Virus record (IMG/VR): IMGVR_UViG_3300024182_000001
Span: 1 to 64,000 of that record
Length of the DNA: 64,000 nucleotides
Origin: a virus
Reading direction: 5' to 3' (one strand)
The notes under the pieces are model-generated. The model was not told where the DNA came from, did no database searches, and was given only the letters and a program-made list of their open reading frames with translations. The translations under genes were made by a program, and so were the position numbers. Below are positions 18,923-61,872 of this stretch, one piece after another. The stretch's first letter is position 1. Each line of letters begins with the position of its first letter.

Positions 18923-19255
18923 TCAGGTTTGCTCCTTCAAGCAAATGTCCGTGCTGGCAGTGTGTTTGTCGCATCCTATGCCCGACCATCCATCACCACG
19001 TCGTAGATTTTCACGCCGCGTAACAGGCTCCAAATGATCAGGATTTACGCACGATCTATTACGACAAAGATGATCTAAGTCTAGCCTTAGCGCTATTTCT
19101 CCACGCAAAAAGATGTAAACAATTCTATGTGCTTGGATAGCTTTTCCTTTCCAAGACGATTTTCCATAACCAGTCCAATAGTGTGCTGCATCCCATAACC
19201 AGCAGCCTGACATTGGTTCTGGAAAAATGTGTCGCTCTATGTAGGCAGGAAGCAT
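18923..19255 (-). CDS. HNH homing endonuclease
   Basis: A DLDHLCRNRSCVNPDHLEPVTRRENLRR segment carries the H-N-H motif. The start shares a nucleotide with the upstream stop. Confidence 0.7.
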   Translation of the reverse strand: MLPAYIERHIFPEPMSGCWLWDAAHYWTGYGKSSWKGKAIQAHRIVYIFLRGEIALRLDLDHLCRNRSCVNPDHLEPVTRRENLRRGDGWSGIGCDKHTASTDICLKEQT

Positions 19256-19719
19256 TATGCACGCCTCACATTAACTCGCGTAAAGTGTGATACTTCAACG
19301 CCAGTTGGCGGATGCCCCTCATGCGATTCCATCCAAGACTTGACGGCATCTTTCTGGGCAGAAATTATAAGCATATCCCCGCCGATTTCTGCCCAATTAT
19401 CGAGGCATAAATCGAGAAGCTTGTCGCGATCGGTAATTTTTACATTCATGAGCACGGATTTATACGCCGTTCCATGCTCCGTCGGCGACGCATCTTGGCC
19501 ACGCTCGTTGAAGCGCTTGAGAAACTCGCCCTCGATCGCATCCATCTCACCCTTATGGGGTTCGAGATAGGCGTCAAAGCGCTTCTTCTCCCCTTCGATC
19601 CACGCCTTCAAAGCCAGATAGCGCGCCACCATATTCTCATCAGTATCGGCGATGATTGCCGGCGGTTGGGGCTGGGCAGCTTCAGCAGGGACTTCGGCTT
19701 CTGCTTTTTTGCGGGGCAT
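19255..19719 (-). CDS. hypothetical protein (possibly Gp157-like)
   Basis: 154 aa with a charged, helical N-terminal half. The family assignment is tentative. Confidence 0.4.
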   Translation of the reverse strand: MPRKKAEAEVPAEAAQPQPPAIIADTDENMVARYLALKAWIEGEKKRFDAYLEPHKGEMDAIEGEFLKRFNERGQDASPTEHGTAYKSVLMNVKITDRDKLLDLCLDNWAEIGGDMLIISAQKDAVKSWMESHEGHPPTGVEVSHFTRVNVRRA

Positions 19720-19726
19720 GAATATC

Positions 19727-20914
19727 TCACTGTTGGGGTGCCGGTTGTTTGGCTAAGCCGATAAGTGCGTCAATCATGCCTGGTGTAACCACGATCGGCG
19801 GGCCTTTTTCGCTAAGCCCCTTGCCGAGACCTTCCTGCACTTTCAGGTTAGCAAGAGCTTGCAGGACGACAAGAGCAGGACCAAGCTTGGTTGCCGCATA
19901 CGCGTCGTTAACGGCTTTTTGGACATCCTTGTCGAATTCGAAAGTGTCACCCCAGCCGATAAAATCAAGGGTCACGCCGACTGAACTGAAATACTCACGT
20001 GCTTTTGCTTCAACGGCTTCCATGATCTTGTTGGTATCTTCATTGGCCTGATCGAAGGTACGTGATGCAATCTCGGAACAAACGAGCGTCTGCACTTTCT
20101 TGCGACCTACATCATCCATGACTTCACGTACGGAACGGCCATAATAAACTGATGTAAAGATGACCTCACCAGATGTCCGCTCGCCCTTCGGTGGGGTCAC
20201 GCCAAATCGATAGAGAAACTTAGCTGCGTCGCGTTCAGCTACAGATGCGCCAATCGAAACGCCTGCAACAATGTTCAGTCCTTCTTTGCTCTGACAGGGG
20301 AAGCCTTCCTTGGTATGCGACGTACCGCGGTCAGCGGCATCAACCCACTCACGCGAATAAGGGGTACGGTCAAGAATGATCAGGCGCCCGGTTGGAACGT
20401 AGTAATCCCATGCGAGATAGCCGCCGGAATTCGTCAGCTTCTGGTGGGGGATAAGAAAGCGCTTTACTGCGAGCTTGTTCTGGTTGAGGTAGGCTTCACT
20501 TTCGAGCTGAGCCTGGCTATCCTTGTTCGCGCCAACATCAGGGATCCAGAACGCTGATTCGTTCGGCATAATGGTATAGGCTTCAGTGCGTTCCGTCTTC
20601 TCGAAGAACGCATATGAATGCTGGTTCGCTGCGAGCAGCAAGACCAAAATCAGCGCTACCAGCGTTTTAACCCAGCGCTTTATCGGCCCAAACCAGATAG
20701 CGACAACAGCTAGCAAAAACGAAAAAAGCAGCACGATCCCACCTCCTGACATAAGAGAAAAAGTATAGGACGTTACTAGAAACGCCCCATCATCATTGGC
20801 AAATTGCTGCCCGGCGGCTTTGCCGGTCACAAGTGCGGCGATCGGACCGAAAGCCGCAGCAAGTACCAGATAGATTGCCAAAATCAAGCCTGTTGCGATG
20901 ATTCTTCCAAACAT
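19727..20914 (-). CDS. membrane protein with an SPFH/band-7-like domain
   Basis: Several N-terminal TM helices. The C-terminal region (VREVMDDVGRKKVQTLV...GVTLDFIGWGDTFEFDKDVQKA) resembles stomatin/HflC SPFH domains. Confidence 0.4.
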   Translation of the reverse strand: MFGRIIATGLILAIYLVLAAAFGPIAALVTGKAAGQQFANDDGAFLVTSYTFSLMSGGGIVLLFSFLLAVVAIWFGPIKRWVKTLVALILVLLLAANQHSYAFFEKTERTEAYTIMPNESAFWIPDVGANKDSQAQLESEAYLNQNKLAVKRFLIPHQKLTNSGGYLAWDYYVPTGRLIILDRTPYSREWVDAADRGTSHTKEGFPCQSKEGLNIVAGVSIGASVAERDAAKFLYRFGVTPPKGERTSGEVIFTSVYYGRSVREVMDDVGRKKVQTLVCSEIASRTFDQANEDTNKIMEAVEAKAREYFSSVGVTLDFIGWGDTFEFDKDVQKAVNDAYAATKLGPALVVLQALANLKVQEGLGKGLSEKGPPIVVTPGMIDALIGLAKQPAPQQ

Positions 20915-22527
20915 TAGAATTCATCCTCCTTGATCAAATCTAAGAGAAAATTCTGGTTGAGCGTGTTTGTTTCAAGCGTCTGGAAAATGCCTGCTTCCAG
21001 TTTATTAGAGACGAGTTGCACCACTGTTACAGGGTACTTTTGCCCTGGCCGATGTGCCCTTTTATTGGCCTGCAAATATAGCTCGGTCTTGTCGCAAGGT
21101 CCGTACCAGATAACGGCCGTAGCCATCCAAAGGTTGAGCCCATGTGCCATCGTGCCGGGATCAGCAATGAGAACTCTCGGCTCGGGTTCTTGCTGGAAAG
21201 CTTGAAATATCCGGGCTCGATCCTTCTGACTGGTATTTCCATTCACGATCTCGCAGGTTGTCGTCCCTTTAAGCTCCTTATACAACATCTCCACCACACT
21301 TGTCAAGGGCGCAAAGATCAATATTTTTCCTGGTGCCTGCTCCATTACATTCTTGAGTTCGGCCACGCGCGGGGAGGCGTCGATCAGATGGACTTTGTGG
21401 TTACCGTCATAGATGGCGCCAAGGGCGATCTGGATAAATTTGGTGCGCGCCGCCGCGGCGTTGATCGCCGTGATGGCCTTGCCCGACTTGGCAACCACGA
21501 TCATGTCGCGCTTGAGATCGGCCATGTGCTTCTTCTGCTCGGGTGTCAGCTCCACATGCCGCTGCTCGGTGGTCATCTCGGGACCATCCCAAATGTCCTT
21601 TATGTCGAAGCGGATGGAGGGATGAAGCAATTGGCGGGCTTTCTCGTAGCCGTCGGGGCGTGGATCCCACCCCCAAGTCGAGAACGGCTTCTTGACCATG
21701 GTTTCCATTTGGAAGGCGGTGAACGACTTGCCTTGCGCGTTATTCACCATCTTCGCCAAGCCATAGGCGTCGGTAGGCTCGTTGGGGGTAGGGGTGCCCG
21801 TCATGAGCCATAGATAATCGCGCCAGCCGATGATCAGTCGCGCCAAGCGGTGGCGCTTGGTCTGCGCGTCCTTATAGGCGGACGCTTCGTCGGCAATCAC
21901 AAGCTTGATATCCTTGCGATCGGCCAGCGCCTTGGAGAAGCCGTCCAGTTCGATCTTCTTGCGGGTATGCGCACCCACCCCGATGCCGTCGTAATTGCAG
22001 AGATAGAAGTCCGCCGGCTTTTTGAGCAGTTCCAGCCGCTTCTGAGCGGATCCATGCAGGATCACGGCGGTGCGCTTGCCCAGAAAATGCTCGAAGATGC
22101 CGTTGCTCCACTGCTGGAGGATGGAAAGCGGGCAGACAATGAGGGCGCGGAATTCACCGGGCCGGTGCCATTTCATAAGATTGTCAGCCGCCCACATTGC
22201 AGCAAGGCTTTTTCCCCCGCCCATGTCGGTCAGGCAAAAGCAGCGTGGGTGCAGGATCAGAAAGTTGGTTGTGATCTTCTGCGACTCATAGGGATGCGGC
22301 ACCGTTCTGGTATTGCGCGGCCAATCGTAGTTGGTATCATCTATTACCGGCGTCACCGGAAAATTATAGTGGCGCAAAACCTGCAGGTTATGCAGGTTCC
22401 TAGGGACCGCAACATATTGCCCGTTGATCTCCTGCGCCTCTGGGATCGTTTGCGTGATCAACGCGTGGCGGGGGTAGATCAAGGTGTTGGATTGGGGGTC
22501 ATGGTAGAAAGCGCTCATGCAATCCAC
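20914..22527 (-). CDS. SNF2-family (SF2) DNA helicase/ATPase
   Basis: Motifs GGGKS (I), DEAS (II), MTGTP (III) and HRPGQ (VI). Confidence 0.8.
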   Translation of the reverse strand: MDCMSAFYHDPQSNTLIYPRHALITQTIPEAQEINGQYVAVPRNLHNLQVLRHYNFPVTPVIDDTNYDWPRNTRTVPHPYESQKITTNFLILHPRCFCLTDMGGGKSLAAMWAADNLMKWHRPGEFRALIVCPLSILQQWSNGIFEHFLGKRTAVILHGSAQKRLELLKKPADFYLCNYDGIGVGAHTRKKIELDGFSKALADRKDIKLVIADEASAYKDAQTKRHRLARLIIGWRDYLWLMTGTPTPNEPTDAYGLAKMVNNAQGKSFTAFQMETMVKKPFSTWGWDPRPDGYEKARQLLHPSIRFDIKDIWDGPEMTTEQRHVELTPEQKKHMADLKRDMIVVAKSGKAITAINAAAARTKFIQIALGAIYDGNHKVHLIDASPRVAELKNVMEQAPGKILIFAPLTSVVEMLYKELKGTTTCEIVNGNTSQKDRARIFQAFQQEPEPRVLIADPGTMAHGLNLWMATAVIWYGPCDKTELYLQANKRAHRPGQKYPVTVVQLVSNKLEAGIFQTLETNTLNQNFLLDLIKEDEF

Positions 22528-22799
22528 TGCTTTATTAATTGGATAGCTCTCTCAGCGGTTCCCCAACAAGCGAAACCGCCCGCAAGTTCTACCTCATCTA
22601 TTCGCTTTACCTGGAGCTTAGTCGGCTGTTTACCTTCCCGCTTTACTTCAACTGAAAAAAAGCGCCCACGGTAGCATCCCACAATATCCGCCACGCCGGA
22701 TTTGCCGAACCCCATCGTGGTCGGCTTGAAGTACCAAGCTCCGATCGAGTCGAGGTAGGCGCAGATTTCTTTTTTCTCATATGATTCGGGGGTTTTCAT
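22515..22799 (-). CDS. VRR-NUC domain nuclease
   Basis: A GKSGVADIVGCYRGRFFSVEVKREGKQPTKLQ segment fits the VRR-NUC consensus; the gene is adjacent to the SNF2 helicase, as is typical. Confidence 0.7.
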   Translation of the reverse strand: MKTPESYEKKEICAYLDSIGAWYFKPTTMGFGKSGVADIVGCYRGRFFSVEVKREGKQPTKLQVKRIDEVELAGGFACWGTAERAIQLIKQWIA

Positions 22800-22809
22800 T
22801 TCGGCCTCA

Positions 22810-23559
22810 CTACTCTGCCGCCAACGCTATTGGATCGGCATCGCCACATTCAACGCAAATTGATGCCTCTTTTGCAGATTTTTTACGAGGCTGATTCCAT
22901 CCCCAGCCCCATTTACAGCGAGTAGGATGTTTGTTTTTTATTTCATTTTCTAGAGAGTGAAAACGTTCTGCGATTCCTGGATAATGCAGGCTCATAATTT
23001 CAGCTTCGCCCTGTCTGGCGAATGCCCCACATAGGCAATCTCCGCTTACAGTTAGTGTATCATAAGCCGGCGCTCGTGTGAATCCGCATTCCCAAAAAAA
23101 CTCCCAAGTTTGTTCTGTTGACCAGTTATATATTGGGGTTAAAATCGGCACGTTTTCCCAAACACTCACGGGCTTGGTGTTAATCAGCCGTCTATTGCTT
23201 TCATTAAGCCGCGTACCCGAAGCCAACACACCGCGTGGGTGGGCTTTTTTGAATTTTCGCACTCCACGGCCCTTGAGATAGTTCATAAAAATTCCATGCT
23301 TGCCGGGACCGGGGAAGCCATATTTTATAACCAGATCGTCGTAACTCGAATCGGTCGCATAAAATTCTAACGGCCATCCACGATCCGCGCAAGTCTTGAT
23401 GACGAAGGCTTTCCAATCTGGAGTGCTGACTCCTGTTTCAAACGACACGCACGCAACTAATTTTCCAGCACGTGATAAAACTTCAGCGGCAGAAAGGCTA
23501 TCTTTGCCGCCACTTACCAAAGCGTAACATTCTGGATAGAATAGTTTTGCGTTCATCAT
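22810..23559 (-). CDS. PP-loop ATP pyrophosphatase of the PAPS reductase/DndC-like family
   Basis: SGGKDS PP-loop motif and C-terminal Cys residues. The start was chosen at MMNAK (GAGGAAA RBS) rather than the long 23679 extension. Confidence 0.7.
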   Translation of the reverse strand: MMNAKLFYPECYALVSGGKDSLSAAEVLSRAGKLVACVSFETGVSTPDWKAFVIKTCADRGWPLEFYATDSSYDDLVIKYGFPGPGKHGIFMNYLKGRGVRKFKKAHPRGVLASGTRLNESNRRLINTKPVSVWENVPILTPIYNWSTEQTWEFFWECGFTRAPAYDTLTVSGDCLCGAFARQGEAEIMSLHYPGIAERFHSLENEIKNKHPTRCKWGWGWNQPRKKSAKEASICVECGDADPIALAAE

Positions 23560-24236: not shown

Positions 24237-24237
24237 T

Positions 24238-28248: not shown

Positions 28249-28317
28249 ATAACCACTGGGCGTCTTGGATCGTTTTTGTTCATCTCGTCTGGAATGGTTA
28301 TTGTTATAGCAGGCATC

Positions 28318-32215: not shown

Positions 32216-32236
32216 AAACCGTAACCATTAAACATA

Positions 32237-34882: not shown

Positions 34883-34887
34883 TGCCT

Positions 34888-41208: not shown

Positions 41209-41446
41209 TCAGTACCTCCCTTGGATCATACGTCCCGTTTGTATCTGGTATCCAGCCGGGGCACGTCATGAGCCCGTCGACATACCACACGGCTCCTTCC
41301 TTCTTATGGTCCCGGAAGCACTTGCCTGTGGTCTCGTCTTCTCCCGAGAACGTTTTGAACGAATAGTATCCACACATCCAGCATCGGTGTGGATCATCCT
41401 TGGTCGTAAGCTTCGCATCCGGCGGTGCGGCGTCGAAGATGCTCAT
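41192..41446 (-). CDS. small Cys-containing hypothetical protein (84 aa)
   Basis: ATGA-coupled to the PseC stop. Start chosen at MSIFDAAPPD. Confidence 0.35.
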   Translation of the reverse strand: MSIFDAAPPDAKLTTKDDPHRCWMCGYYSFKTFSGEDETTGKCFRDHKKEGAVWYVDGLMTCPGWIPDTNGTYDPREVLSENRK

Positions 41447-42585
41447 AGCTTCATCTCCTCCGCTACTTTCTTGAAAGCGTTTCCGATCTGCTTGATCTGT
41501 TCTCGCGTTGGCGACCACGCGCAATTCTCGAACAAAAAGAGCCTGCGGTCGTGAAGGTCTTCTGCCACCGGGCACTCTCTTGCATACTTCGAGAACGCCG
41601 GCAGCCGGTACAGCGGCGCCACATATCCCTGGCTCACCGGCACGCCTTCCATGAACAGCCGGCTGGTGAACTCGGCCCGCGCTCCTGACGTTTCGTTCTT
41701 CATGAGAAACGGGATGGCATAATAAACATGCTTGCATCCTTCCCGCACCGCGGGCCCTCGTATTCCAGGAATATCCCCGATCGCCTCGATGATCGCTTCT
41801 GCTTGCTCGATCCTTCCGCCAATCAGCTCGTCCGCCCTTTGGAGCTGCGAGAGCGCAATGGCCGCGGATACCTCGGTAAGTCGGAGGTTGAGGCCAATAG
41901 CCTTTCCCGCCATCTCCCCATGGTTAACGAATCTCCGTATTTTTTCCGCAAGCTCGTCGTTATCCGTGACGCATATACCTCCCTCACCACATTGCAAATG
42001 CTTATGTACGTTGAGGCTGAAAACTCCGATGTCTCCGAATGTTCCGGCATATTCACCTCGCTCCATTGCAAAGGGGGATTGGGAATTGTCTTCGATCACC
42101 GTGATATAGTTGGGTAGTTGTATCATTAAATCCTGTACTGCGGATGGATGCCCGAACAAGTTTGTTATTATAAGAGTTTGGCACCTATCTTCGTTGAAGT
42201 CGATATCGGCTGCGTGCTCAGGATTCATACAGAAGGTTGCATCTTCCACGTCAATAAAATGGGGACGGGATCCGGTGAACATTGGGGCTGCGACAGTAGC
42301 CGACATGGTGTAAGGTGAGACGGCAAACCTATTGAAGGTGGAAAGCCCGACCGCAAACGCCGCCGCCAGCAGCCCCGACGTTGCCGAATTGCATGCAACG
42401 GCGTGTTTGACGTCAAATCGCGCAGCCCACTTTTCCTCCAATTCGCAGACGTAATATCCATTCGATCTCAGCTTGCCGCCGATAAAGCCTGACAGGGTAT
42501 GACCACGCAGCATATTGTACGCGTTATATTTATCGGCGTGACTAACAGCTTCGTACGGCGCAATAGCCCCTTTCACTTCCGGCAT
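41443..42585 (-). CDS. pseC: DegT/DnrJ/EryC1-family PLP aminotransferase (PseC-like sugar aminotransferase)
   Basis: 380 aa of the DegT family, co-operonic with PseB- and PseI-like genes. Confidence 0.8.
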   Translation of the reverse strand: MPEVKGAIAPYEAVSHADKYNAYNMLRGHTLSGFIGGKLRSNGYYVCELEEKWAARFDVKHAVACNSATSGLLAAAFAVGLSTFNRFAVSPYTMSATVAAPMFTGSRPHFIDVEDATFCMNPEHAADIDFNEDRCQTLIITNLFGHPSAVQDLMIQLPNYITVIEDNSQSPFAMERGEYAGTFGDIGVFSLNVHKHLQCGEGGICVTDNDELAEKIRRFVNHGEMAGKAIGLNLRLTEVSAAIALSQLQRADELIGGRIEQAEAIIEAIGDIPGIRGPAVREGCKHVYYAIPFLMKNETSGARAEFTSRLFMEGVPVSQGYVAPLYRLPAFSKYARECPVAEDLHDRRLFLFENCAWSPTREQIKQIGNAFKKVAEEMKL

Positions 42586-43463
42586 AATTCCTCCCTCAAT
42601 TCCTCAACCGACATTCTTCGTGCGTCTTTGCTGCAGTTTGTTTCGTCCATGCTTTCGTGCAGCTTTTCCCAGCGCGGCAACCCGATTACGCGCATCTGCG
42701 CTTGGAATGCCTCAACGAGATCGCCCAGCCGATAGGCCGGCAACCGCGGGATTGCCAGTTCGCCACCTCGCATATCCTTGGCGGTATTGAGCACAAGGTC
42801 GACGGCTTGCTCCATCCGCATGAAGAAGCGCGTGCAGTTGGGATCGGTGACGTTGAGCCACGCGGGGTTCGGGTAGTACTTCTCGCATTCGGCTTTCCAC
42901 AATGGAACCACTGATCCTGTGGAACCCCAGACGTTGCCGTACCGGCAGACTGCAAACCGTGGGCCCTCTGCCCCGGTCGTATTATTTGCCGCGAGAAACA
43001 ACGACTCCATCATCGCTTTGCTGCACCCATATGGCGAGATTGGCTGGAACGCCTTGTCGCTCGATACTCCCACCACTTTCCTGACGCCTGCGTCTTGCGC
43101 CGCTTCTACCACGTTCATGGCCCCGAACACGTTGGTCTTCACCATCTCGATCGGGTTGTAGTGTCCCACCTCGATCCGCTTAAGCGCCGCGGCGTGGATC
43201 ACCACGTCGATACCGCGCATGGCGCGCACCAGTCGATCTCGATCCCGCACGTCGCCGATGAAGAAGCGTAACCGCTTATGTGGATCTAACCCTGCAAGCT
43301 CTTGGGACATCTGGTGCTGGCGGAATTCGTTGCGCGAGAATATGACTATCTTGCTAATATTTTCATATAAGGCGAGCGACGCGAAACGCGTAGTTTCTAG
43401 TAGCTGCTTCGCCAGCGCGGTTCCAAGCGCCCCTGAGCCTCCGGTTATTAAATACGACGTCAC
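42573..43463 (-). CDS. pseB: UDP-GlcNAc 4,6-dehydratase of the PseB/FlaA1/CapD type (short-chain dehydrogenase)
   Basis: ITGGSGALG Rossmann motif. Segments KIVIFSRNEFRQHQM, RFFIGDVRD and HAAALKRIE resemble PseB. Confidence 0.8.
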   Translation of the reverse strand: MTSYLITGGSGALGTALAKQLLETTRFASLALYENISKIVIFSRNEFRQHQMSQELAGLDPHKRLRFFIGDVRDRDRLVRAMRGIDVVIHAAALKRIEVGHYNPIEMVKTNVFGAMNVVEAAQDAGVRKVVGVSSDKAFQPISPYGCSKAMMESLFLAANNTTGAEGPRFAVCRYGNVWGSTGSVVPLWKAECEKYYPNPAWLNVTDPNCTRFFMRMEQAVDLVLNTAKDMRGGELAIPRLPAYRLGDLVEAFQAQMRVIGLPRWEKLHESMDETNCSKDARRMSVEELREELCRK

Positions 43464-45481
43464 GCTCTCACCATCGGTTCAACGCTTCCCCCTTCCAACC
43501 TCTTTTCCACGTCCCCCTTCCTTACCGCTTCCTCGATCACGCCCAGGGTGTGGTCGTACGATTTCAGCACGCGCTTGATCTCGCTCATTCCATGCGCCGC
43601 GCAAATGTTGTGTGAAGCGATGATCAGCGTCCCGGTCGCGATCATTTCCTTCCGGAATAGCGCGGCGATGGAACCGGCGGCAGGCATGCTTGTGTGATCC
43701 TTGAACTTCAGTCGAATGAGTGGCTCTGCACCATACAGCGAGATGTATTCAGTGAGTTCGGCGTCTTCTATTTTCAGGGCTACTTGTGCGCCAAGGTCTG
43801 CGCCTTTGAACCATAATCCGTCGATCACATTATCTCGCTCCAGCTTCTTGATCGTCGCAATCCCGGCCGCCAGGCTTAAAGCCTCTCCGAAGAACGTTCC
43901 GGAATAGAAGATATTATCTGGCGGCTCCATCCGCTTCATAATATCCCTTCGGCCGACGATTGCCGACAGCGGCATCCCGTTGGCCATCGCCTTGCCGAAG
44001 CACGCGAGATCGGGTGTCACGCCATAGAGCTTTTGCGCTCCTCCTAGGTCGAAGCGGAAGCCGGTTATGACTTCGTCGAATATAAGGACGGTGCCGGTCT
44101 CGTCGCAGTATTCGCGCAACGATTTCAGATAAGCTGGATTGCTTTCTGGTTCGACGATAACAGCGGCAAACCGTTCGATACCTGCGAGCCAGGGGTTCCA
44201 TCCAAAAGCTTCGCGCCTGCTGAATACCTGTATTCCTCCTGGGATGCCGATAGTTCGCTCGCAACTCCAGTCTGCCCACCCGTGGTACCCTCCGCATATA
44301 AGTACCCGGTTCCTGCCGGTATAAGCCCGCGCCAACCGCACCGCGCACGTGGTTGCATCCGTCCCGGTCTTGCCGAAGCGCACCATCTCGGCGCAAGGGA
44401 TCAGTCTTACCAGAAGTTCGGCTAATTCAGCTTCGAGTTCGGTGGCAAGGGAAAATGAGATGCCTCGGGAGAGTTGATCTCGGATTGCTCCATCGACGTT
44501 AGGATCACAGTAGCCCAGGATGTTTGGGAGCAGGCCGGACACAAGATCAGTGTATGAGTTACCGTTGACATCCCAGACTGTTCCTCCTTGCCCGTGGGTG
44601 AGGAAGAGTGGGGAGGGTTGGGGGAATTGGAGTTTTGACTTGCTGAATGTTTGTGTGCCCAGCGGAATGACAGCTTCAGCGCTTCCCAAAAGACTTTGGG
44701 AGCGATCATAGCTGCGGCGATATACGGGCTCCTCCACCAACGCATCGTAATACCTCTGATTTATTTCGTGATCAGTATTCAGTTTTCGCAGCGCCGGGCT
44801 TTTGTCCAGAATATCGAGGATAGCCAGTTGTGACGGCGGCCCTTTTTCCCACGGCCAGTTGGTGGCGATTGCCTTGCAGAATTCGTAATCTGCCGCAGTG
44901 TCGAGAACGTATCTTTCTTTATGTTGGTTTGAAATAGGGTTGATAATGGTTCTGGCGGAAAACCGCGACTGGTTGGCCTGTATCCACGTCGTTACGCATT
45001 CCCGATCGATGGGGCGGATGGCTTCTTTGTCGGCGGCACGTAGCGCGTCGATCGTAACCGCCTCACAATCTTGCCCGTCAGCGAAGGTGCGCGGGCTGAC
45101 ATTGCTAGCGTAATCGCAGCCAGTATCTTTTTGGAGCCTGACGACTTCCCCGATAATATTTGGATCAATTAGCGGACAGTCACAGGTGACCCTTATTGCA
45201 ACACTGGCGTTTGCCGCTTCGGCAGCACCGAGAAAGCGAGAGAGCACATCGGTCTCCGAGCCGCGGAAGACATTGACAGCGTGACTGTGGCACCAATCTT
45301 CAACAGTGTCGTCTGCAGGCAGCGTAGACGTAGCGATCCATACTTCATCCACTCCGATTGCAGCTTTCGCGGCGCGCGTAACCCATGCTATGACGGGCTG
45401 GCCGCCAAGATCCATCATCACTTTCCCCCTGAGCCGCGTAGACCCCATTCGGGCAATGCCGATAAAAACTGTTTTCACCAT
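43460..45481 (-). CDS. bifunctional protein: N-terminal cytidylyltransferase (CMP-nonulosonate synthetase/SpsF-like) fused to a class-III (GSA-aminomutase-like) aminotransferase
   Basis: N-terminus VFIGIARMGSTRLRGKVM. C-terminal DEVITGFR, FGKAMANGMP (Lys) and SGTFFGEALS motifs are typical of PLP class-III aminotransferases. Confidence 0.7.
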   Translation of the reverse strand: MVKTVFIGIARMGSTRLRGKVMMDLGGQPVIAWVTRAAKAAIGVDEVWIATSTLPADDTVEDWCHSHAVNVFRGSETDVLSRFLGAAEAANASVAIRVTCDCPLIDPNIIGEVVRLQKDTGCDYASNVSPRTFADGQDCEAVTIDALRAADKEAIRPIDRECVTTWIQANQSRFSARTIINPISNQHKERYVLDTAADYEFCKAIATNWPWEKGPPSQLAILDILDKSPALRKLNTDHEINQRYYDALVEEPVYRRSYDRSQSLLGSAEAVIPLGTQTFSKSKLQFPQPSPLFLTHGQGGTVWDVNGNSYTDLVSGLLPNILGYCDPNVDGAIRDQLSRGISFSLATELEAELAELLVRLIPCAEMVRFGKTGTDATTCAVRLARAYTGRNRVLICGGYHGWADWSCERTIGIPGGIQVFSRREAFGWNPWLAGIERFAAVIVEPESNPAYLKSLREYCDETGTVLIFDEVITGFRFDLGGAQKLYGVTPDLACFGKAMANGMPLSAIVGRRDIMKRMEPPDNIFYSGTFFGEALSLAAGIATIKKLERDNVIDGLWFKGADLGAQVALKIEDAELTEYISLYGAEPLIRLKFKDHTSMPAAGSIAALFRKEMIATGTLIIASHNICAAHGMSEIKRVLKSYDHTLGVIEEAVRKGDVEKRLEGGSVEPMVRA

Positions 45482-45990
45482 CGTGCAAATTCTCCATGAT
45501 ATTTTTTAGCGGCTTTTTGGTATGCTGTGGCTGCGTCGCTGATGTTGTTAAAATAGCCTAAAAATTTGCGCTGTTTATTGGTTGTTATTTGTGCCAGCCA
45601 TTTTTTCATATCCGGATGCCAGCATACGCCTTTAACGCCGCTTGTGTTTCGGATCGATGGTTTTTTATTATATGTATTTTGAGGCCGCGTGGCATCTCGC
45701 AGATTGGAAATTCGGTTGTCACTTCTATTTAAATTTCTATGATCTAGATCATTGATAGGCCAGCGACCACGTTCGTAGAACCAAGCTACTCTAGCAGCTT
45801 GAAAAAGCGTACCATCAACTCTTATCTGTATGTATCCGTCAGCTTTTAGGGAGCCGGCTACGTCACCTGTTTTACTGTTTCCGCGTGATATAAGGCGCGT
45901 AAATACGCCGGTGGCACGATCATAGTGAAGTACTTCTAAAAGCCGCGCGTGGAGTAGTTGCTTTTCTTTTTTCCTGTTTATTGCGGTCAT
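45475..45990 (-). CDS. HNH-AP2 homing endonuclease
   Basis: HNH_3 motifs in ARVAWFYERGRWP and DLDHRNLNRSDNRISNLR. AP2 DNA-binding domain in GVKGVCWHPDMKKWLAQITTNKQRKFLGYF. ATGA-coupled at both ends within the operon. Confidence 0.75.
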   Translation of the reverse strand: MTAINRKKEKQLLHARLLEVLHYDRATGVFTRLISRGNSKTGDVAGSLKADGYIQIRVDGTLFQAARVAWFYERGRWPINDLDHRNLNRSDNRISNLRDATRPQNTYNKKPSIRNTSGVKGVCWHPDMKKWLAQITTNKQRKFLGYFNNISDAATAYQKAAKKYHGEFARW

Positions 45991-46868
45991 CCCAACCCCA
46001 CCTTTTCCTTAACTTGCCGGCAAATCTCCAGCACTCGAAGCCCATCTTCACCCGTGGCCCATTGAACTGGCGGTTCTGCCGCGGTTCTAGTTGGGGCTAT
46101 GCCACCTATGAACGCCTGCATCTCATCGATATAGTCGTCATTCCACTCCCCACCGAACTGCTGCGTCATCTTGCCGAACGACACTTGCCGTCCGAGCATA
46201 TCCAGCCCGATGTTCTTCTCGGTACCGACGATCCAGCCTTCCCGGATTTCGTTCCGGGTCACATAATCCAGGTGGATGGTACTTCGGGCGCCGCTGTCGT
46301 GTTCAAGCACAATGTCGGCAATGTCATCCTTGCCGTCCACGACATGCACGGACGCCGCCACCACCTTCGCTGGCCCCAGCAGATAAAGCGCCAAGTCGAT
46401 CTCGTGCGACCAGTTCAGCACGACTCCATCACGCAGATAATCCGGCTTGTCGTTGTATTGCCCGCAGATGAAGGTAGCCCACAGCGGCGTGCCGATATGC
46501 CCGGCGTCGATCCAATTCTTGGCCGCTTTGATGCAGGGATGGAACCTGAGAAAATAGCCGAGAAATAGTTCTTTAAGCAGGTCTTCTTGCCAGAACTGTG
46601 CGATCTGGGCGCAAGTTCCTAGCGGCTTTTCCATAAAGATTTTGGCTCTTGCGGACATGGTAGCCCAGTCGTCGTAGTGACGGTTGGTGGGAGTGCATAT
46701 GAGAATAGCGTCGCTTTCAATTACTTCATCTCGATCCCAGAGTACGCCGCTGAGCGCCAACCTTTTTTTCATATCAGTGTCATACCCAATAACCTGGTGC
46801 CCCATCATTTTAAGATTACGCGCATGTCGCATCCCGATCGAGCCCAGCCCAAGAATCCCTATCTTCAT
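45987..46868 (-). CDS. Gfo/Idh/MocA-family NAD(P)-dependent oxidoreductase
   Basis: MKIGILGLGSIGMRHA Rossmann motif. The start was moved to M17, which is ATGA-coupled. Confidence 0.65.
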   Translation of the reverse strand: MKIGILGLGSIGMRHARNLKMMGHQVIGYDTDMKKRLALSGVLWDRDEVIESDAILICTPTNRHYDDWATMSARAKIFMEKPLGTCAQIAQFWQEDLLKELFLGYFLRFHPCIKAAKNWIDAGHIGTPLWATFICGQYNDKPDYLRDGVVLNWSHEIDLALYLLGPAKVVAASVHVVDGKDDIADIVLEHDSGARSTIHLDYVTRNEIREGWIVGTEKNIGLDMLGRQVSFGKMTQQFGGEWNDDYIDEMQAFIGGIAPTRTAAEPPVQWATGEDGLRVLEICRQVKEKVGLG

Positions 46869-47482
46869 GTTCTCACCGGTATTGCGTTTGTTCGTTTTTG
46901 CAGGATGGTTATGCACTCATCTTCCACATATAGGCGCGACCTATCCTGTACGTGATACCAAGGGTGTGCCGTCCACAATTCCGAGAAATCGAGATGGTAC
47001 GCGAGTAAACCTTCTTTCGGACTGTATGGAACGGCGTATGCAGGCTGGAGCGTGTTGAAATCATGAATAACCAGCCACCCTCCATCCGCCAGCAGCCTGT
47101 CCGCTTCCGCCACGATCCGGAACCATTCACGTGGCTCCGTAACATACAAGCAGAACCCGAAGATGATCATGTCGAACGTGCCGCCAAGCCATGGCTCGCT
47201 GTATCCGAACTTGCCCCAGCAGACATCATCCAGCCCGCTCGTAATAGCGACTGCCACGGCATCCTGGCTGGTATCAATCCCCGACACCCGGCAGCCGTAT
47301 TTATCTCGCATCTTGCGCAGTCGCCAGCCGTTGGAACATCCGACTTCGAGCACCCGCTTCGGGCGGATCAGCGGCAATAGCCCGAGTAGATCGCCGACCG
47401 GATCGCGCTTGCCGAGCTTCTCCTTGTTGCGATGGTACCAGGCATCGCCCTCGCCATTTAGGAATGTGTCGCTCTGGCTCAT
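46865..47482 (-). CDS. class I SAM-dependent methyltransferase
   Basis: Motif I in VLEVGCSNG, with an acidic residue at the end of beta-2 (GID). Confidence 0.65.
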   Translation of the reverse strand: MSQSDTFLNGEGDAWYHRNKEKLGKRDPVGDLLGLLPLIRPKRVLEVGCSNGWRLRKMRDKYGCRVSGIDTSQDAVAVAITSGLDDVCWGKFGYSEPWLGGTFDMIIFGFCLYVTEPREWFRIVAEADRLLADGGWLVIHDFNTLQPAYAVPYSPKEGLLAYHLDFSELWTAHPWYHVQDRSRLYVEDECITILQKRTNAIPVRT

Positions 47483-48240
47483 TTGTTTCCTAGTACGTAG
47501 AGGAAGTTGGGGGAGTAGAATTCTGGGCTAAATCCGAGTGATGGCAGTTGCGAGGCGACTTTATTGATCAGGTGCCCATAAGCCGGCTCTTTATCATCAG
47601 CCTTGCAGAGAGCGGCGTACACGGCGCGCGAGATTATATAGTAGAGGTTGCCGATATTCTCGCGACCGATGATATCGAAATGCGTGCTGGCGAACGGCTC
47701 GAATTCTCCTATCCACATATAGCGGTTATGCCAGCGTTCTTCGATCTTATGCAGGTCGAATTGAGCGCGTAGGTAGTTTAGGCTATGCAAGCCGTCTTTG
47801 AAGTTTTCAACGAGTATGATCGTTCCGCCCGGCTTCAGGCACTTCTTCATTTCCAGCAGCGCCACCTGCTGTTCTTCCCAACTCGCGAGATTGATCAGGC
47901 AACGTCCGGAGATGATGATATCTTGGTTATGCGCGTGCTTCGATAGTTCCCGCACGTCGCCGACAATAAAAGCGATATCGGAGTACGTTTTTCGCGCTTC
48001 ATGAATCATCTTCTCTGAGTAATCAACTCCGACGAAATCCGAGTCACAGGCTTCCCAGAACTTCTGGGTCGAATACCCGTTCCCACACCCGACGTCCAAT
48101 ATCTTTCTTCCTGGCTCCAGGTGCTCGATAATCTTCCTGATTTCCAGGTCCCGATAGAAATGATCCGGAGCGGTGGCGAGATCGGACGCGCCATGTTCTT
48201 GCGCTTGGGCGTCCCAGAATTCTTTTACTTTATCATTCAT
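47479..48240 (-). CDS. class I SAM-dependent methyltransferase
   Basis: Motif I in ILDVGCGNG. Start chosen at MNDKVKEF, which is ATGA-coupled. Confidence 0.65.
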   Translation of the reverse strand: MNDKVKEFWDAQAQEHGASDLATAPDHFYRDLEIRKIIEHLEPGRKILDVGCGNGYSTQKFWEACDSDFVGVDYSEKMIHEARKTYSDIAFIVGDVRELSKHAHNQDIIISGRCLINLASWEEQQVALLEMKKCLKPGGTIILVENFKDGLHSLNYLRAQFDLHKIEERWHNRYMWIGEFEPFASTHFDIIGRENIGNLYYIISRAVYAALCKADDKEPAYGHLINKVASQLPSLGFSPEFYSPNFLYVLGNK

Positions 48241-48416
48241 TCTGGAAGCTCCACTTTGATCCAATGGGTAAAACCAGCTTTTTCTGGTTCTAGATAATGA
48301 GTAGCGCTGCTGGTAAACCACGCCACCGGATGTGGAGCATCTTTATTCCATACAAGTATGATGGATCCATCACGTGGAGCCGCGCAGTATTCCAGATTTT
48401 CCCATTCCCACTTCAT
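48237..48416 (-). CDS. small hypothetical protein (59 aa)
   Basis: My own translation gives MKWEWENLEYCAAPRDGSIILVWNKDAPHPVAWFTSSATHYLEPEKAGFTHWIKVELPE. ATGA-coupled on both sides. Confidence 0.3.
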   Translation of the reverse strand: MKWEWENLEYCAAPRDGSIILVWNKDAPHPVAWFTSSATHYLEPEKAGFTHWIKVELPE

Positions 48417-57631: not shown

Positions 57632-57632
57632 A

Positions 57633-57809
57633 GTGGATTCGGAAGATACCATATGTTCTGAAACTGGTTATTGCCAAGCAAGTCCTGGCGAGCGCGATAT
57701 AACCAACTGCGAGTTTTGTGGTAAGGAATTGCATGAACGTAATGGCCAATGGTGGACGTGGGATGCCGATCAATATGATAATCCATACCCACAATGCTTC
57801 GTATGTTGA
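57633..57809 (+). CDS. small Cys-rich (zinc-binding) protein, 58 aa, GTG start
   Basis: Sequence DSEDTICSETGYCQASPGERDITNCEFCGKELHERNGQWWTWDADQYDNPYPQCFVC. The RBS is weak. Confidence 0.25.
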   Translation: MDSEDTICSETGYCQASPGERDITNCEFCGKELHERNGQWWTWDADQYDNPYPQCFVC

Positions 57810-57961
57810 AGCTATTGCGCCTACTGAAAAAGTGGTGTAATTGAGTTCCATCAGCAGAGCGGCGCCCGCCTGCCGATCCCTACCTCCATCACGTGCCGTG
57901 ATGGTTCCACGCAGCCAAATCAGCGGAGTTCGCTGAAGCGGTTGGCAGCAGGAGCCGTCAT

Positions 57962-58633
57962 ATGGCTAACGTGTTGGAAAGCCCAACCAGGGGATTTCAA
58001 GAATTCGGCCGCGCTGAAGGTGGGTCCCCGACTGCGGGTATGACCCCGGTTTGGATTGGTTCGACCGATCCGGCACTGATCTTCCGCGGCGATACCGTCA
58101 TTCGATCGTCCAACAATACCGGCACTTCCGGCCAATACATCACCGCAGCGATCAACTCCACGGGCGGCCCGGTGCGTGGCGTGTTCATGGGCTGCGAGCA
58201 GTATATCCCGACTGCCGGCCGTGTTGTCTGGTCCAACTACTACAACGGTGTGGTCACGGGCTCGACCGGTGACGTCAGGGCATGGGTCATCGACGATCCC
58301 GCTCGGCTCTTTCTCGTACAGTGCTCGACCATCAACACGGTCACATCCTCGTATGTCGGCCTGAACGCAGGCTTTACGTCCTCGCTGTCGAGCTTAGGCA
58401 ACACCACCGTCGGCCTGTCGGCCCAGCAACTCACTTCTTCGCTCGTCGGGTCGACTGGCGGCCTACCATGGCGTATCGTCGACTTCTACTCGAATTACGC
58501 CCCGCCCGGCGTGCCTGGTATTGGCACCAACGCTTTCATCAATGGCACTGACAATACGACCGCAGCCAACATGGTGATCGTGCGACTCAACAACTGCGAG
58601 CGTCTCAATCTGACTGCTCCTAGCTCGGCATAA
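57962..58633 (+). CDS. virion structural protein (223 aa, S/T/G-rich)
   Basis: AGGAGC RBS; lies in the head/structural module. Confidence 0.45.
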   Translation: MANVLESPTRGFQEFGRAEGGSPTAGMTPVWIGSTDPALIFRGDTVIRSSNNTGTSGQYITAAINSTGGPVRGVFMGCEQYIPTAGRVVWSNYYNGVVTGSTGDVRAWVIDDPARLFLVQCSTINTVTSSYVGLNAGFTSSLSSLGNTTVGLSAQQLTSSLVGSTGGLPWRIVDFYSNYAPPGVPGIGTNAFINGTDNTTAANMVIVRLNNCERLNLTAPSSA

Positions 58634-58644
58634 GGGAGTTCGTG

Positions 58645-59043
58645 ATGGATATCCTTTCGCACGACAAGAAAGCCGAAGATAAGTGGCACGATCATCGGCA
58701 TCCACCGGTCGGCATCGGTTCGAGCGAGGCGATGGTCGTTACCAGGGCGTCGTCATATACGCTTCTGGTTTTGTCGCCGACGGTCGGCGCCATGGCGCTC
58801 CAGCTTCCCATCACAAATCCGTCTACGACAGTTACGGAGGGCTCGACGGTTCCGATCCCTCCGGCAGTCGTTGTGGGCGACGTGGTTGAAGTCTGCGTCG
58901 AGCCGGATAGCGCCGCCAGCGCGTATGTCTGGTACGGCGCGACTACCGCCGATTCCATGCACGGCAACTATGATGAAGTCAGCCCCGGAAAGTGTCGCGT
59001 TTACCGCTACGTGTCCGGGGCTGTTTGGAATCGGTATTCCTAG
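58645..59043 (+). CDS. virion structural protein (132 aa)
   Basis: AAGGGAG RBS placed 6 nt before ATG 58645. Confidence 0.4.
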   Translation: MDILSHDKKAEDKWHDHRHPPVGIGSSEAMVVTRASSYTLLVLSPTVGAMALQLPITNPSTTVTEGSTVPIPPAVVVGDVVEVCVEPDSAASAYVWYGATTADSMHGNYDEVSPGKCRVYRYVSGAVWNRYS

Positions 59044-59061
59044 ATGTTGAACGCCGGCAAC

Positions 59062-59892
59062 TCAGCTTTTTCTTGGTTTGCGCTTTTTGGGAAGCGCAGT
59101 CAGGATTTCGCTTGGGGTTTTGCCGGTAGCGGTTTCTCGGGTAATATGTTCAATAAGTTTGGCGTCAACTCTATGGTTTCTAGCGTCAAACCAGTCTTGA
59201 ATATTTCCCGCATTCGTAACCCATTCGAGGTTATTCGAGCGGCAGTTTGTCTTGTCTTCGTCTATGTGGTTAACAACCGGCAGGTTATCAGGATTTGGAA
59301 CGAAAGCTGCTGCAACAAGTCGATGTACAAGCAGGGTTTTTATAATACCAGCCTTGCTCAATTCGACTTTAGGGTACCCGCTTCCATCACTCCCGTTGGT
59401 GGTGATTCTAGCGCTCCAGAAACGCTTACGCCCAAGGGTATCTTCAAGGTGTCTTCCAACGCTGTGGATTCGCCCCAGGTTGCTGATTTGGTAAAATCCT
59501 TCGTATCCAGAGACGTCTTTCCATTCTTCTCCGGGAAGGCTGTCGGGGCGTTCTATCATTTTTGGAAAAAGCTCCATCACCGCTTTATCGACATAGAAAG
59601 CCCGTGCGCGCGGCTTTCCAGCAGGTTGATTAGGGATGGCCAAGTAGGCGACTCTAAATCCTTCGTTGATGGAGATTTTAAGCATGCGGCTACGTACGGT
59701 TCGTCCGGAACAATCCAGACGATTGAGTCGAAATACTCTCCCGAGGTTCGATACTTCGTAAATCCCCTCGTAGTTAGGAATAGGTTTCCATTCTTCACCG
59801 GGGCGATCATTGCGTGGTTCTCCCGGTTCAGTCGTTCTCTTTGTCAAAAGAGTCTCCCTTTCATGTCGATGATAGTATCGCTGCACTATCAT
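59062..59892 (-). CDS. HNH homing endonuclease with two NUMOD4 motifs
   Basis: GEEWKPIPNYEGIYEVSNLGRV and GEEWKDVSGYEGFYQISNLGRI match NUMOD4. HRLVAAAFVPNPDNLPVVNHIDEDKTNCRSNNLEWVT matches HNH_3. Confidence 0.75.
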   Translation of the reverse strand: MIVQRYYHRHERETLLTKRTTEPGEPRNDRPGEEWKPIPNYEGIYEVSNLGRVFRLNRLDCSGRTVRSRMLKISINEGFRVAYLAIPNQPAGKPRARAFYVDKAVMELFPKMIERPDSLPGEEWKDVSGYEGFYQISNLGRIHSVGRHLEDTLGRKRFWSARITTNGSDGSGYPKVELSKAGIIKTLLVHRLVAAAFVPNPDNLPVVNHIDEDKTNCRSNNLEWVTNAGNIQDWFDARNHRVDAKLIEHITRETATGKTPSEILTALPKKRKPRKS

Positions 59893-59965
59893 AGATACGT
59901 TATTGACGAAGCATCGTCAAGCACCAGCGCAGTGAGAAAGGGTGGATTCCTGTGCCAGTAGCATT

Positions 59966-59981
59966 ATCACAAATTCGTGAT
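59966..59981. promoter_or_regulatory. palindromic operator-like site ATCACAAATTCGTGAT just upstream of a TTGACT/TAAATA-like promoter for the capsid gene
   Basis: Same half-sites as the operator family; it precedes ATG 60030 by about 50 nt. Confidence 0.5.
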
Positions 59982-60029
59982 TTGTTGTTGCCAGGGCTTT
60001 GACTCTGGGGCATAGATGGTAAATACAAG

Positions 60030-60872
60030 ATGATCGAACGGCAGTGGCCGCAGATCTTCAAGTCCGTCGACTCGAACATGGCGCTCGAACGTCGTGTCGC
60101 GGTGCGCTTCCTAGGCTACGCGCAGCTCAAGAACGAAGGCGCTCCGACCGCCGCGGACAATAACGCCGGCCAGCGCTACGTGTACAATGCCGAACACTTT
60201 GAAATCGGTCTTATGTACGCGATCACTCGCAAGGCGATCGACGACAACCTCTACAAATCCGAGTTCGGCCCCAACAACGACGGCCTTATGGAGTCGTTCA
60301 AGGAAACCGAAGAAGTCTACGCCGGCAACGTGCTCAACAACGGCTCCGTCTATAACCCGGCCGTTCAGGGCGACGGTGTTGCGCTTATCTCGACCGCGCA
60401 TCCGATCGACGGAGCGACAATTGCCAACCAGCCTTCTCCGGATGTTTCTCTGAATGAGACTTCGCTGCTCAATTCGGCGATTGTCATCCGATCGACCTGG
60501 AAGAACAACGCTGGCCTGAAAATCCATGCGCGTGGGCAGAAGCTGATCGTGCCTCCGAACCTGGAGCCGATCGCCGCGCGCTTGTTTCGATCTGAGTTGC
60601 GAGTGGGTACTGGTCAGAACGACGTTAACGCCGTGCGCGAGATGGAGCAGTCCTTCAAGGAAGGCTACATGGTGTACGACTATCTCACGTCGTCTTTTGC
60701 CTGGTTCGTGCTGACGAATATTCAGGGACTTGTGTTCTTCCAGCGTAAGGCGTTCGAGAGTGACATGAGCGTCGAGTTTACTACTGATAACCTTTTAGTC
60801 AAGGGTTATCAACGCTACATTCCAACATATTTTGACTGGAGGAGAATTTTTGGAACCTACCCTACGTCGTAA
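60030..60872 (+). CDS. putative major capsid protein (280 aa), assigned by position
   Basis: Follows the scaffold/assembly genes and has its own promoter. It shows no clear similarity to T7 or lambda capsid proteins, so this is tentative. Confidence 0.4.
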   Translation: MIERQWPQIFKSVDSNMALERRVAVRFLGYAQLKNEGAPTAADNNAGQRYVYNAEHFEIGLMYAITRKAIDDNLYKSEFGPNNDGLMESFKETEEVYAGNVLNNGSVYNPAVQGDGVALISTAHPIDGATIANQPSPDVSLNETSLLNSAIVIRSTWKNNAGLKIHARGQKLIVPPNLEPIAARLFRSELRVGTGQNDVNAVREMEQSFKEGYMVYDYLTSSFAWFVLTNIQGLVFFQRKAFESDMSVEFTTDNLLVKGYQRYIPTYFDWRRIFGTYPTS

Positions 60873-60939
60873 TATCCTCTATTGACAGTGGGGTACATAA
60901 AGGGTATGTTGTCTGCATCCAGCAACGGAGGCGGACAAT

Positions 60940-61872
60940 ATGGAAACGAAAGCTCCTATTACTCATGCACGCGTTCGAGCACTTCTTGAGTATGATGCGG
61001 AAACAGGCGTTTTTCGTCGCAATCTTAGGAAATCAGATTTGCGCGAAGATGAGCCGCTTTCGCATGAGCGTTTGCTTCAAGTTCTCGAATATGATCCTCT
61101 TACGGGCATCTTTATCTGGAAAGAAAAAACAGGTCATAGATCGGTCATTGGAACTGAAGCCGGAACAAATAAAATTGTCACTAGCGGCGTGTATCGATAT
61201 ATCGCTGTCGACGGTGTCAGGTACCTTGCCCATCGACTTGCATGGTTCTGGGTCCGAAAAACGTGGCCCCGACTTCTTAAATTCAAAGACGGTGACTCCC
61301 TTAATTGTGCATTTGAAAACCTCGAAGATGCCGGAGAAGCTGTTGGAAGTGGTAAAACTAGTGAAGGATACGTCTACATTAGACTTGATGGCTCTGACTA
61401 TCCCGCAGCGCGACTCGCATGGTTTTGGACGTATGGAGAATGGCCGGGACTTCTTCGTTTTCGAGACGGTAATAAAGAAAATCTTCGGTTGGGTAATTTG
61501 CGAGATTCTGCAGCGGAGCCAGCGTACGCCAAAAGCGATCAAGAGCGGTATGAAGATCGAAAATCAGTGTACGCAAGAGATCGTGAACGGTCTCGAAATC
61601 TTGCATTCAAAAACAAGTATGGAATCTCACTGGCAGATTTCCGACGCATGGAAGCCGAGCAAAACGGCGTCTGTTCTATCTGCGGCCAACCGGAAACTAT
61701 CGAGCGTAACGGAAAAGCTCGGCTGCTCGCTGTTGACCACTGCCATGACACCGGCAAGGTTCGAGGGCTGCTTTGCGGGAAATGTAATCCGATGATCGGG
61801 TACGCAGATCACAGTATTGACATCCTCACGCGCGCTATTGATTATCTGAAGCGCACGAACGGAGCTGACTAA
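60940..61872 (+). CDS. composite homing-endonuclease-like protein: two degenerate HNH_3-type repeats plus a C-terminal endonuclease VII-type nuclease
   Basis: The repeats YRYIAVDGVRYLAHRLAWFW...DGDSLNCAFENL and YVYIRLDGSDYPAARLAWFW...DGNKENLRLGNLR parallel the HNH-AP2 protein at 45475. The C-terminus CSICGQPE...LAVDHCHDTGKVRGLLCGKCN is EndoVII-like. Confidence 0.6.
   Translation: METKAPITHARVRALLEYDAETGVFRRNLRKSDLREDEPLSHERLLQVLEYDPLTGIFIWKEKTGHRSVIGTEAGTNKIVTSGVYRYIAVDGVRYLAHRLAWFWVRKTWPRLLKFKDGDSLNCAFENLEDAGEAVGSGKTSEGYVYIRLDGSDYPAARLAWFWTYGEWPGLLRFRDGNKENLRLGNLRDSAAEPAYAKSDQERYEDRKSVYARDRERSRNLAFKNKYGISLADFRRMEAEQNGVCSICGQPETIERNGKARLLAVDHCHDTGKVRGLLCGKCNPMIGYADHSIDILTRAIDYLKRTNGAD

Follow-up and report, generated by a model that had tools for sequence, protein, structure and literature searches.

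Homing endonucleases are modular enzymes that, as a rule, find their targets by means of small dedicated DNA-binding motifs, NUMODs, AP2 domains, and zinc fingers among them. In cyanophage S-PM2, F-CphI was shown to be a homing endonuclease built on the endonuclease VII (EndoVII) motif, and it became the founder of the named DHHRN family (PMC6083498; Fang et al., Mob DNA 2018). The same paper places the motif C-terminally in putative endonucleases and N-terminally in resolvases; F-CphI is the product of a free-standing gene that lies between two conserved phage genes, and its motif is at the C-terminus, where the 'endonuclease clade' has it. Here we describe a putative relative with a different N-terminus, encoded in a 64,000-nucleotide stretch of viral DNA (positions 1 to 64,000 of IMG/VR record IMGVR_UViG_3300024182_000001; the whole of this stretch is referred to below as the window). 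The source of the window is an uncultured tailed phage of ~72 kb with four free-standing homing endonuclease genes (HEGs), one of them apparently decaying, and the HEG that follows the major capsid gene codes for a composite protein in which inactivated modules of one nuclease type, HNH_3, precede an intact EndoVII nuclease (Table 1).

The composite protein resembles the F-CphI family in that its C-terminal EndoVII domain has the arrangement CX2C...DHxH...R...CX2C-N and conforms to the DHHRN sequence definition, and its gene is also free-standing between two conserved phage genes. However, F-CphI has only 142 aa and a Cys-rich N-terminus of ~45 residues with no HNH_3 match, whereas ~195 N-terminal residues of the composite protein are built of 2.3 inactivated I-HmuI-like modules. 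A term search of the F-CphI paper, in which 'DNA-binding' and 'AP2' are absent, found no analysis of N-terminal targeting domains. A parallel for the modules themselves lies outside the phages: Smad MH1 is a His-Me finger that has lost catalysis and kept DNA binding, and the NFI DNA-binding domains are likewise inactivated His-Me fingers, according to the relevant parts of the His-Me finger classification, which in those parts contains no mention of a fusion between dead HNH_3 and Endonuclease_7 (Jablonska et al. 2017, PMC5714182). Smad MH1 and NFI differ in that they are transcription factors of eukaryotes and are unrelated in sequence to the composite protein, where the dead finger sits within a nuclease and presumably binds DNA. 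The original prediction was of a possibly new homing endonuclease architecture, and this is supported with some qualifications; the targeting module is recurrent and, within the literature that could be searched, appears undescribed, but HEGs with the EndoVII motif had already been named DHHRN (PMC6083498), the nuclease of the composite protein is of this known kind, and the fusion is not a singleton.

From its N-terminus the composite protein comprises a partial repeat, two dead HNH_3 modules, a long helix, and the EndoVII (DHHRN) nuclease. The repeats had been proposed to be degenerate relatives of the HNH-AP2 protein encoded elsewhere in the window, joined to a different catalytic module, and each part of this proposal is borne out. 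BLASTP against the HNH-AP2 protein gives 36% identity for repeat 1 (residues 35–131, E=5e-12) and 38% for repeat 2 (residues 111–190, E=3e-13), with LDHRN of the HNH-AP2 protein aligned opposite LKFKD (K114, F115) and LRFRD (R173, F174) of the composite. The PHROGs profiles agree, in that the N-terminal two thirds of the composite match phrog_99 'HNH endonuclease' in two stretches (3.4e-41), this being also the best PHROG family for the HNH-AP2 protein, and the C-terminal third matches several 'endonuclease VII' PHROGs. Compared with I-HmuI, the HNH_3 family, and the HNH-AP2 protein, the modules form a tandem duplication in which other residues stand in for the catalytic Asp-His and for the last metal-binding Asn, and cleavage would fall to a different, appended nuclease. 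With the DH replaced and the terminal Asn absent, the repeats are thus derived from HNH_3 and yet are not HNH nucleases. They have an I-HmuI-like fold, with an N-terminal beta-sheet and a beta-beta-alpha finger, although the relationship to I-HmuI is visible only through structure and the Pfam and PHROG profiles and not in a search of Protein Data Bank (PDB) sequences, where weak matches to Mre11 (E ~0.01) were judged to be spurious. In the AlphaFold2 model the partial repeat 0 forms a helix (residues 9–15) and two strands (16–19 and 24–27).

Alignment with 17 close relatives of the composite protein (55–72% identical) shows that the position of the catalytic His is occupied by F, Y, A, or P in module 1 and by F or Y in module 2, and never by His. 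The residues of the fold behave very differently: A97, R99, L100–W102, W109–P110, N127–L128, A160–W161, W168–P169, N181, and N186 are invariant, as are R173 of module 2 and Y18, D19, and G23 of the partial repeat. Because the fold residues of the dead repeats do not vary across these relatives, the repeats appear to be under purifying selection and not in decay.

The same architecture recurs in metagenomic proteins. A search of 5.8 billion proteins recovered 252 homologs of the composite, and among the best 120 of these there are 80, all metagenomic, with one or more HNH_3-like modules and a downstream EndoVII motif (58 with one module and 22 with two). Not one of the 102 modules in these 80 fusion proteins has a His at the aligned catalytic position, although in two of them (P0015 repeat 1 and P0061 repeat 2) a His follows immediately after the canonical position. 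P0095 alone among the retrieved proteins has an intact VDHIDGN motif, and it is without an EndoVII domain. Further variants combine a dead module with both AP2 and EndoVII (P0088, for example), and we note that a distant member of 512 aa, P0050, has two dead HNH_3-like modules, EndoVII, and a weak C-terminal match to Mom (PF25680, E=0.0026, below the curated cut-off). Searches of 50,697 deposited phage genomes with double- and single-repeat queries gave no HNH_3/EndoVII fusion, and neither did 185,579 species-representative prokaryotic genomes, in which only the EndoVII part gives matches. Two candidates among cultured phages were considered and rejected. The apparent single repeat plus EndoVII of Klebsiella T7-like phages is a tblastn alignment that crosses stop codons, the annotated protein being a 101-aa EndoVII-only product, and in Salmonella phage Si3 (Felixounavirus) there are two separate genes, an EndoVII-type open reading frame (ORF) in the DNA-polymerase gap and an intact HNH_3 gene (IDHKDG).

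The C-terminal domain was predicted to be of the EndoVII type, and it aligns to EndoVII with all of the Zn-binding and catalytic residues intact. The Zn ligands are paired as C245-x2-C248 and C279-x2-C282 on either side of the DHxH motif, the catalytic residues are D266, H267, H269, R275, and N283 (corresponding to the DHHRN residues D40, H41, H43, R54, and N62 of T4 EndoVII), and all are invariant in the 17 relatives. Residues 208–305 are 46% identical to F-CphI residues 47–140 over 98 residues (BLASTP E=3e-25), which places the catalytic module in the DHHRN family. A profile search of PDB sequences with this domain matches the restriction enzyme Hpy99I (3.6e-7) and residues 11–73 of T4 EndoVII (5.5e-6). 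An AlphaFold2 model of the whole protein, built with 79 sequences, is confident by its mean predicted local distance difference test score (pLDDT) of 91.7 and has a predicted template modelling score (pTM) of 0.50, and Foldseek searches with it find T4 EndoVII with a probability of 1.00 and I-HmuI with 0.93. Hpy99I is likewise recovered by fold as well as by sequence.

The genomic position of the composite gene was compared with that in 80 viral contigs collected through the capsid protein and two more collected through composite homologs. The capsid gene and the conserved gene downstream are separated by a spacer of only 8–36 nt in 39 of the 46 informative relatives, including the closest, L003, whose capsid protein is 96% identical; in the window this spacer is 999 nt and contains the double-repeat composite gene, whose stop codon shares bases with the ATG start of the gene that follows (TAATG). 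Other relatives have other occupants. Double-repeat composite genes are also present after the capsid gene in L001 and L002, whereas L012 has at this place (6856–7575) a 239-aa gene with a single dead repeat and EndoVII, L052 (6915–7427) and L055 (3404–3868) have intact HNH_3(-AP2) genes, and two further relatives have inserts of 97 and 137 nt. The capsid-downstream site thus appears to be a homing hot-spot, and its occupants form a possible evolutionary series of nuclease swapping. The distribution of the composite gene is patchy with respect to the capsid phylogeny, as relatives with 84–96% capsid identity mostly do without it and relatives at 73–78% have it. More broadly, the comparison with related phages that was proposed along with the original prediction reveals, against ~100 related contigs, presence/absence polymorphism at three of the four HEG sites, which strengthens the interpretation of these genes as homing endonucleases.

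There are two promoter-like sequences at the locus. One, a sigma-70-like candidate with the sequence TTGACA-17-TATGTT, lies within the inserted DNA ahead of the composite gene (Table 1), and a second, TTGACA-17-GATTAT (61817–61845, plus strand, also with 10/12 matches), lies within the composite gene at its 3′ end, immediately before the downstream gene, where it could compensate for the insertion. The number of promoter-like sites in the composite region is not above that expected by chance.

We favor the interpretation that the composite protein is a homing endonuclease of the DHHRN family whose EndoVII domain cuts, whose dead HNH_3 modules read the target, and whose gene homes into the capsid-downstream spacer, and we consider this likely. 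We infer DNA binding, the place of cleavage, and mobility in the following form. The Zn-stabilised beta-beta-alpha-metal EndoVII domain at the C-terminus would perform the cutting, and the N-terminal array of HNH_3 modules, with the general-base His and the metal ligands lost and the fold kept, would have taken on a new role in binding DNA and reading its sequence, comparable to that of Smad MH1, such that tandem dead I-HmuI-like modules would provide an extended, asymmetric recognition surface. Cleavage would take place during co-infection at the empty junction between the capsid and downstream genes of related phages, or in the adjacent conserved coding sequence, and recombinational repair from the HEG-bearing genome would copy the composite gene into the 8–36-nt spacer.

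Four observations weigh against this interpretation. First, the full-length pTM is only 0.50, which would indicate flexibly linked domains, and the arrangement of the domains is thus not fixed by the model. Second, the shifted His residues noted above make it possible that some family members have residual HNH activity. Third, neither end of the capsid gene (at the 5′ end, its first 84 nt) nor the 5′ end of the downstream gene gives a clear signal of HEG-specific 'immunity' substitutions. Fourth, the composite genes of the window, L001, and L002 are only ~60% identical to each other while occupying the same site, and this is compatible also with old vertical inheritance and repeated loss.

The fourth point is also an argument for a domesticated or immobile remnant, vertically inherited at a fixed site in a role beneficial to the phage, such as exclusion of co-infecting relatives or regulation, and with homing lost. 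The strong conservation of the whole protein is consistent with this explanation, as are the promoter-like sites before the composite gene and the downstream gene. However, such a history does not sit easily with the patchiness of the gene relative to the capsid phylogeny, nor with the presence at the same site of different HEG types, which is typical of active homing hot-spots, and exclusion through cleavage of relatives would be mechanistically the same activity; we regard domestication as unlikely.

A second alternative is that the composite protein is not selfish and is instead a phage Holliday-junction resolvase or packaging endonuclease like the T4 gp49 EndoVII. In resolvases of the T4 EndoVII type the catalytic domain comes first and a helical dimerisation domain makes up the C-terminus, and their genes are conserved as essential or core genes. 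The Pfam assignment to Endonuclease_7, the recovery of T4 EndoVII by both sequence and fold, and the designation of relatives as 'Recombination endonuclease VII' in some database records all point in this direction, but the gene is missing at this site in 39 of 46 relatives, the closest included, and is thus dispensable, and the best matches of the nuclease are F-CphI and Hpy99I and not gp49. Moreover, the N-terminal modules are of a sequence-reader type, the match to T4 EndoVII does not extend into its C-terminal part, and the EndoVII motif is C-terminal where resolvases carry it N-terminally, as stated in PMC6083498. Given the dispensability of the gene, the position of the motif, and the identity of the best matches, we think a resolvase very improbable.

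The weakest alternative, that of a tandem active HNH joined to EndoVII in which the N-terminal modules still cut or nick by means of non-canonical residues, draws on the Pfam scoring of the repeats as HNH_3, the retention of the structural Asn residues N127, N181, and N186, and the shifted His in two relatives, but with all three catalytic positions lost (both repeats have Phe for the general-base His and Lys or Arg for the Asp before it, and neither has the final metal-binding Asn), and with DH kept in all of the related intact HNH_3 genes (Si3, L052, L055, and P0095), it is highly improbable.

Table 1. Positions of the composite gene and its parts, the surrounding capsid locus, and the other homing endonuclease genes in the window.
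Feature	Position	Strand	Evidence and remarks
Displaced C-terminal tail of the first HNH gene, CxHGH...GxRxCxxC, Zn-ribbon-like	18825..18989	-	Other frame; phrog_826 positions 163-209, 6e-8
HNH_3 / zf-His_Me core ORF, 110 aa, H62 intact	18923..19255	-	Pfam HNH_3 9.8e-11, weak zf-His_Me_endon match; phrog_826 positions 82-160
HNH_3-AP2 HEG, catalytic D83-H84, N96, N105 intact	45475..45990	-	Pfam HNH_3 1.4e-11 and AP2 8.2e-8
133-aa accessory ORF, not a nuclease	58642..59043	+	tblastn 62% (L003 5531-5914), 35% (L022 1955-2236)
Free-standing HEG with two NUMOD4 and HNH_3	59062..59892	-	Pfam NUMOD4 in two stretches 3e-26, HNH_3 5.9e-9
Major capsid gene, HEGs on both sides	59952..60872	+	PF25209 in homologs; phrog_371
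CTT TGA CTC in capsid gene: 6 extra nt with in-frame TGA (60000-60002), matched Leu codons	59997..60005	+	Comparison with ~80 relatives
Sigma-70-like promoter candidate, TTGACA-17-TATGTT	60882..60910	+	10/12 matches; in inserted DNA, 30 nt upstream of composite gene
Composite free-standing HEG, 310 aa	60940..61872	+	Pfam HNH_3 in two stretches 3.4e-8, Endonuclease_7 3.5e-22
Partial repeat 0, residues 6-30, helix and beta-hairpin	60955..61029	+	Duplicates start of repeat 1 (LEYDAETGVF vs LEYDPLTGIF)
Dead HNH_3 module 1, residues 38-131	61051..61332	+	K114-F115 in place of catalytic Asp-His; final metal-binding Asn absent
Dead HNH_3 module 2, residues 140-190	61357..61509	+	R173-F174 in place of catalytic Asp-His; best Pfam HNH_3 stretch residues 157-188
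EndoVII / DHHRN catalytic domain, residues 223-304 of 310	61606..61851	+	Pfam 3.5e-22
Conserved 339-aa downstream gene	61872..62891	+	Abuts capsid gene (8-36 nt spacer) in genomes without a HEG there

The four HEGs had been predicted from the sequence to have different architectures, and Pfam searches of all four ORFs, with which the PHROGs profiles agree, find each at the coordinates, on the strand, and with the domains predicted, including the double-NUMOD4 HNH gene on the opposite strand within the capsid block; only the first HNH gene needs to be redrawn, as described below. A local profile hidden Markov model and phmmer scan of the 919 ORFs of at least 40 aa in the window found no fifth HNH_3 or EndoVII gene, and GIY-YIG and LAGLIDADG were screened by crude regular expressions only.

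The NUMOD4-HNH gene lies just upstream of the capsid start and faces away from it, and its catalytic motif, VNHIDED...NLEWVTNAGN, is intact. The gap upstream of the capsid gene is usually ~88 nt in the relatives but is 1.4 kb in the window, where it is occupied by this gene and a 133-aa ORF. Homologs of the NUMOD4-HNH gene are present in the same place and orientation in 3 of ~78 relatives (L036, L052, and L062), and with HEGs on both of its sides the capsid gene region is likely to be the target region of both. The 133-aa ORF has no Pfam or PHROG match above threshold, and because it is present in L003 and L022 without the HNH gene it is an accessory gene in its own right and no cargo of the HEG. 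We note that, of the four genomes in which a NUMOD4-HNH gene precedes the capsid gene, two have a non-ATG start codon for the capsid, TTG in L052 (5929) and GTG in the window (59952), while the start is ATG in ~76 genomes without this HEG and also in the HEG-carrying L036 and L062, which hints that the HEG insertion or a co-conversion tract may have reached the capsid start codon.

The capsid gene of the window has a further peculiarity close to this HEG. The capsid N-terminus is near-invariant in ~80 relatives, with 24 conserved codons that begin MPVALSQI[RK]DLLLPGLWGI..., and the window departs from this after its GTG start by the sequence ...CCA GGG CTT TGA CTC TGG GGC..., in which six extra nucleotides bring in a TGA codon in frame, 60–110 bp from the NUMOD4-HNH gene. 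A hop over the six nucleotides would give back PGLWGI exactly, its take-off codon CUU being matched by the landing codon CUC, whereas read-through of the UGA would yield PGLWLWGI and re-initiation at the ATG at 60030 would remove the conserved N-terminus. Suppression by a tRNA was considered as an explanation for the in-frame TGA and rejected, the window containing no tRNA genes. The surrounding hairpin CCAGGG[CUUUGA]CUCUGG is present in the minimum free energy fold but is not significant (z=-1.43). The insert is seen only in the one contig whose DNA could be read (k141_280774 of ENA assembly ERZ27256733); a second record has the same 280-aa capsid product and is possibly not independent. Searches for other contigs with the six-nucleotide insert gave chance matches or nothing, the phage of the window being absent from the JGI metagenome collection.

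There is a possible precedent in phage T4, where the 50-nt bypass insert of gene 60 belongs to the cassette of the HNH endonuclease MobA and protects against MobA nicking (bioRxiv 10.1101/2022.08.31.505936, citing Bonocora 2011). The two situations are alike in having an HNH HEG beside an essential gene and a nearby insert with a take-off codon, a stop, and a matching landing codon; they are unlike in that the capsid insert has 6 nt and not 50 nt. Synthetic stop-hops of the CUU-UGA-CUC form work in Escherichia coli, and natural ones are said not to have been found (2016 recoding review, PMC5009743). Translation could deal with the insert by a stop-hop, read-through, or re-initiation; the insert itself could be a target-immunity scar of the neighbouring HNH gene or an artefact of assembly. 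The specific proposal that it is functional, breaking the target of the NUMOD4-HNH endonuclease to confer self-immunity and being tolerated through a hop of peptidyl-tRNA-Leu from CUU over UGA to CUC, seems to us doubtful, but if true, the capsid CUU-UGA-CUC would be a natural stop-hop that restores the wild-type PGLWGI.

The remaining two HEGs lie at a distance from the capsid gene. The HNH-AP2 gene is wedged between two sugar-pathway genes, overlapping them by 4 and 7 nt, which code for a GFO/IDH/MocA oxidoreductase and a cytidylyltransferase-aminotransferase fusion, and its AP2 domain matches plant AP2/ERF structures. Relatives for this locus were found with the 673-aa neighbour as query (the 309-aa neighbour gave none), and the HNH-AP2 gene is missing in all 19, with the two neighbours abutting directly in 12. 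The oxidoreductase gene, the 673-aa fusion of cytidylyltransferase and class-III aminotransferase, and their neighbours make up a sugar-modification block (41443–48321, minus strand) that is conserved in the relatives and may give the phage a nucleotide-sugar or nonulosonic-acid-type pathway of its own.

For the first HNH gene, an HNH_3 ORF is present as predicted but is only the front part of a gene split by a frameshift, the C-terminal tail of which is displaced into another frame. Conceptual fusion of the two fragments matches phrog_826 positions 82–208 in a single stretch (1e-39), and the frameshift may be genuine, in which case the HEG is decaying, or may stem from a sequencing error. Neighbour-based locus searches returned nothing or non-syntenic contigs only, and thus no syntenic relatives of this locus.

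The composite protein belongs to a known kind of system and leaves current understanding in place, but it carries the recently defined DHHRN family beyond cultured phages. In it HNH_3, a complete nuclease domain of a rival type, has lost its activity, been duplicated, and stayed under selection, and would serve as the reader for an EndoVII nuclease. The compact I-HmuI-like modules, which we take to read DNA separately from catalysis, could serve in enzyme engineering. At one site across the relatives there is an active HNH-AP2 gene, a gene with one dead module and EndoVII, and a gene with two dead modules and EndoVII, with a dead module, AP2, and EndoVII combined elsewhere, and this may be a rare natural series illustrating how new homing enzymes could arise when nucleases are swapped and domains are exapted.

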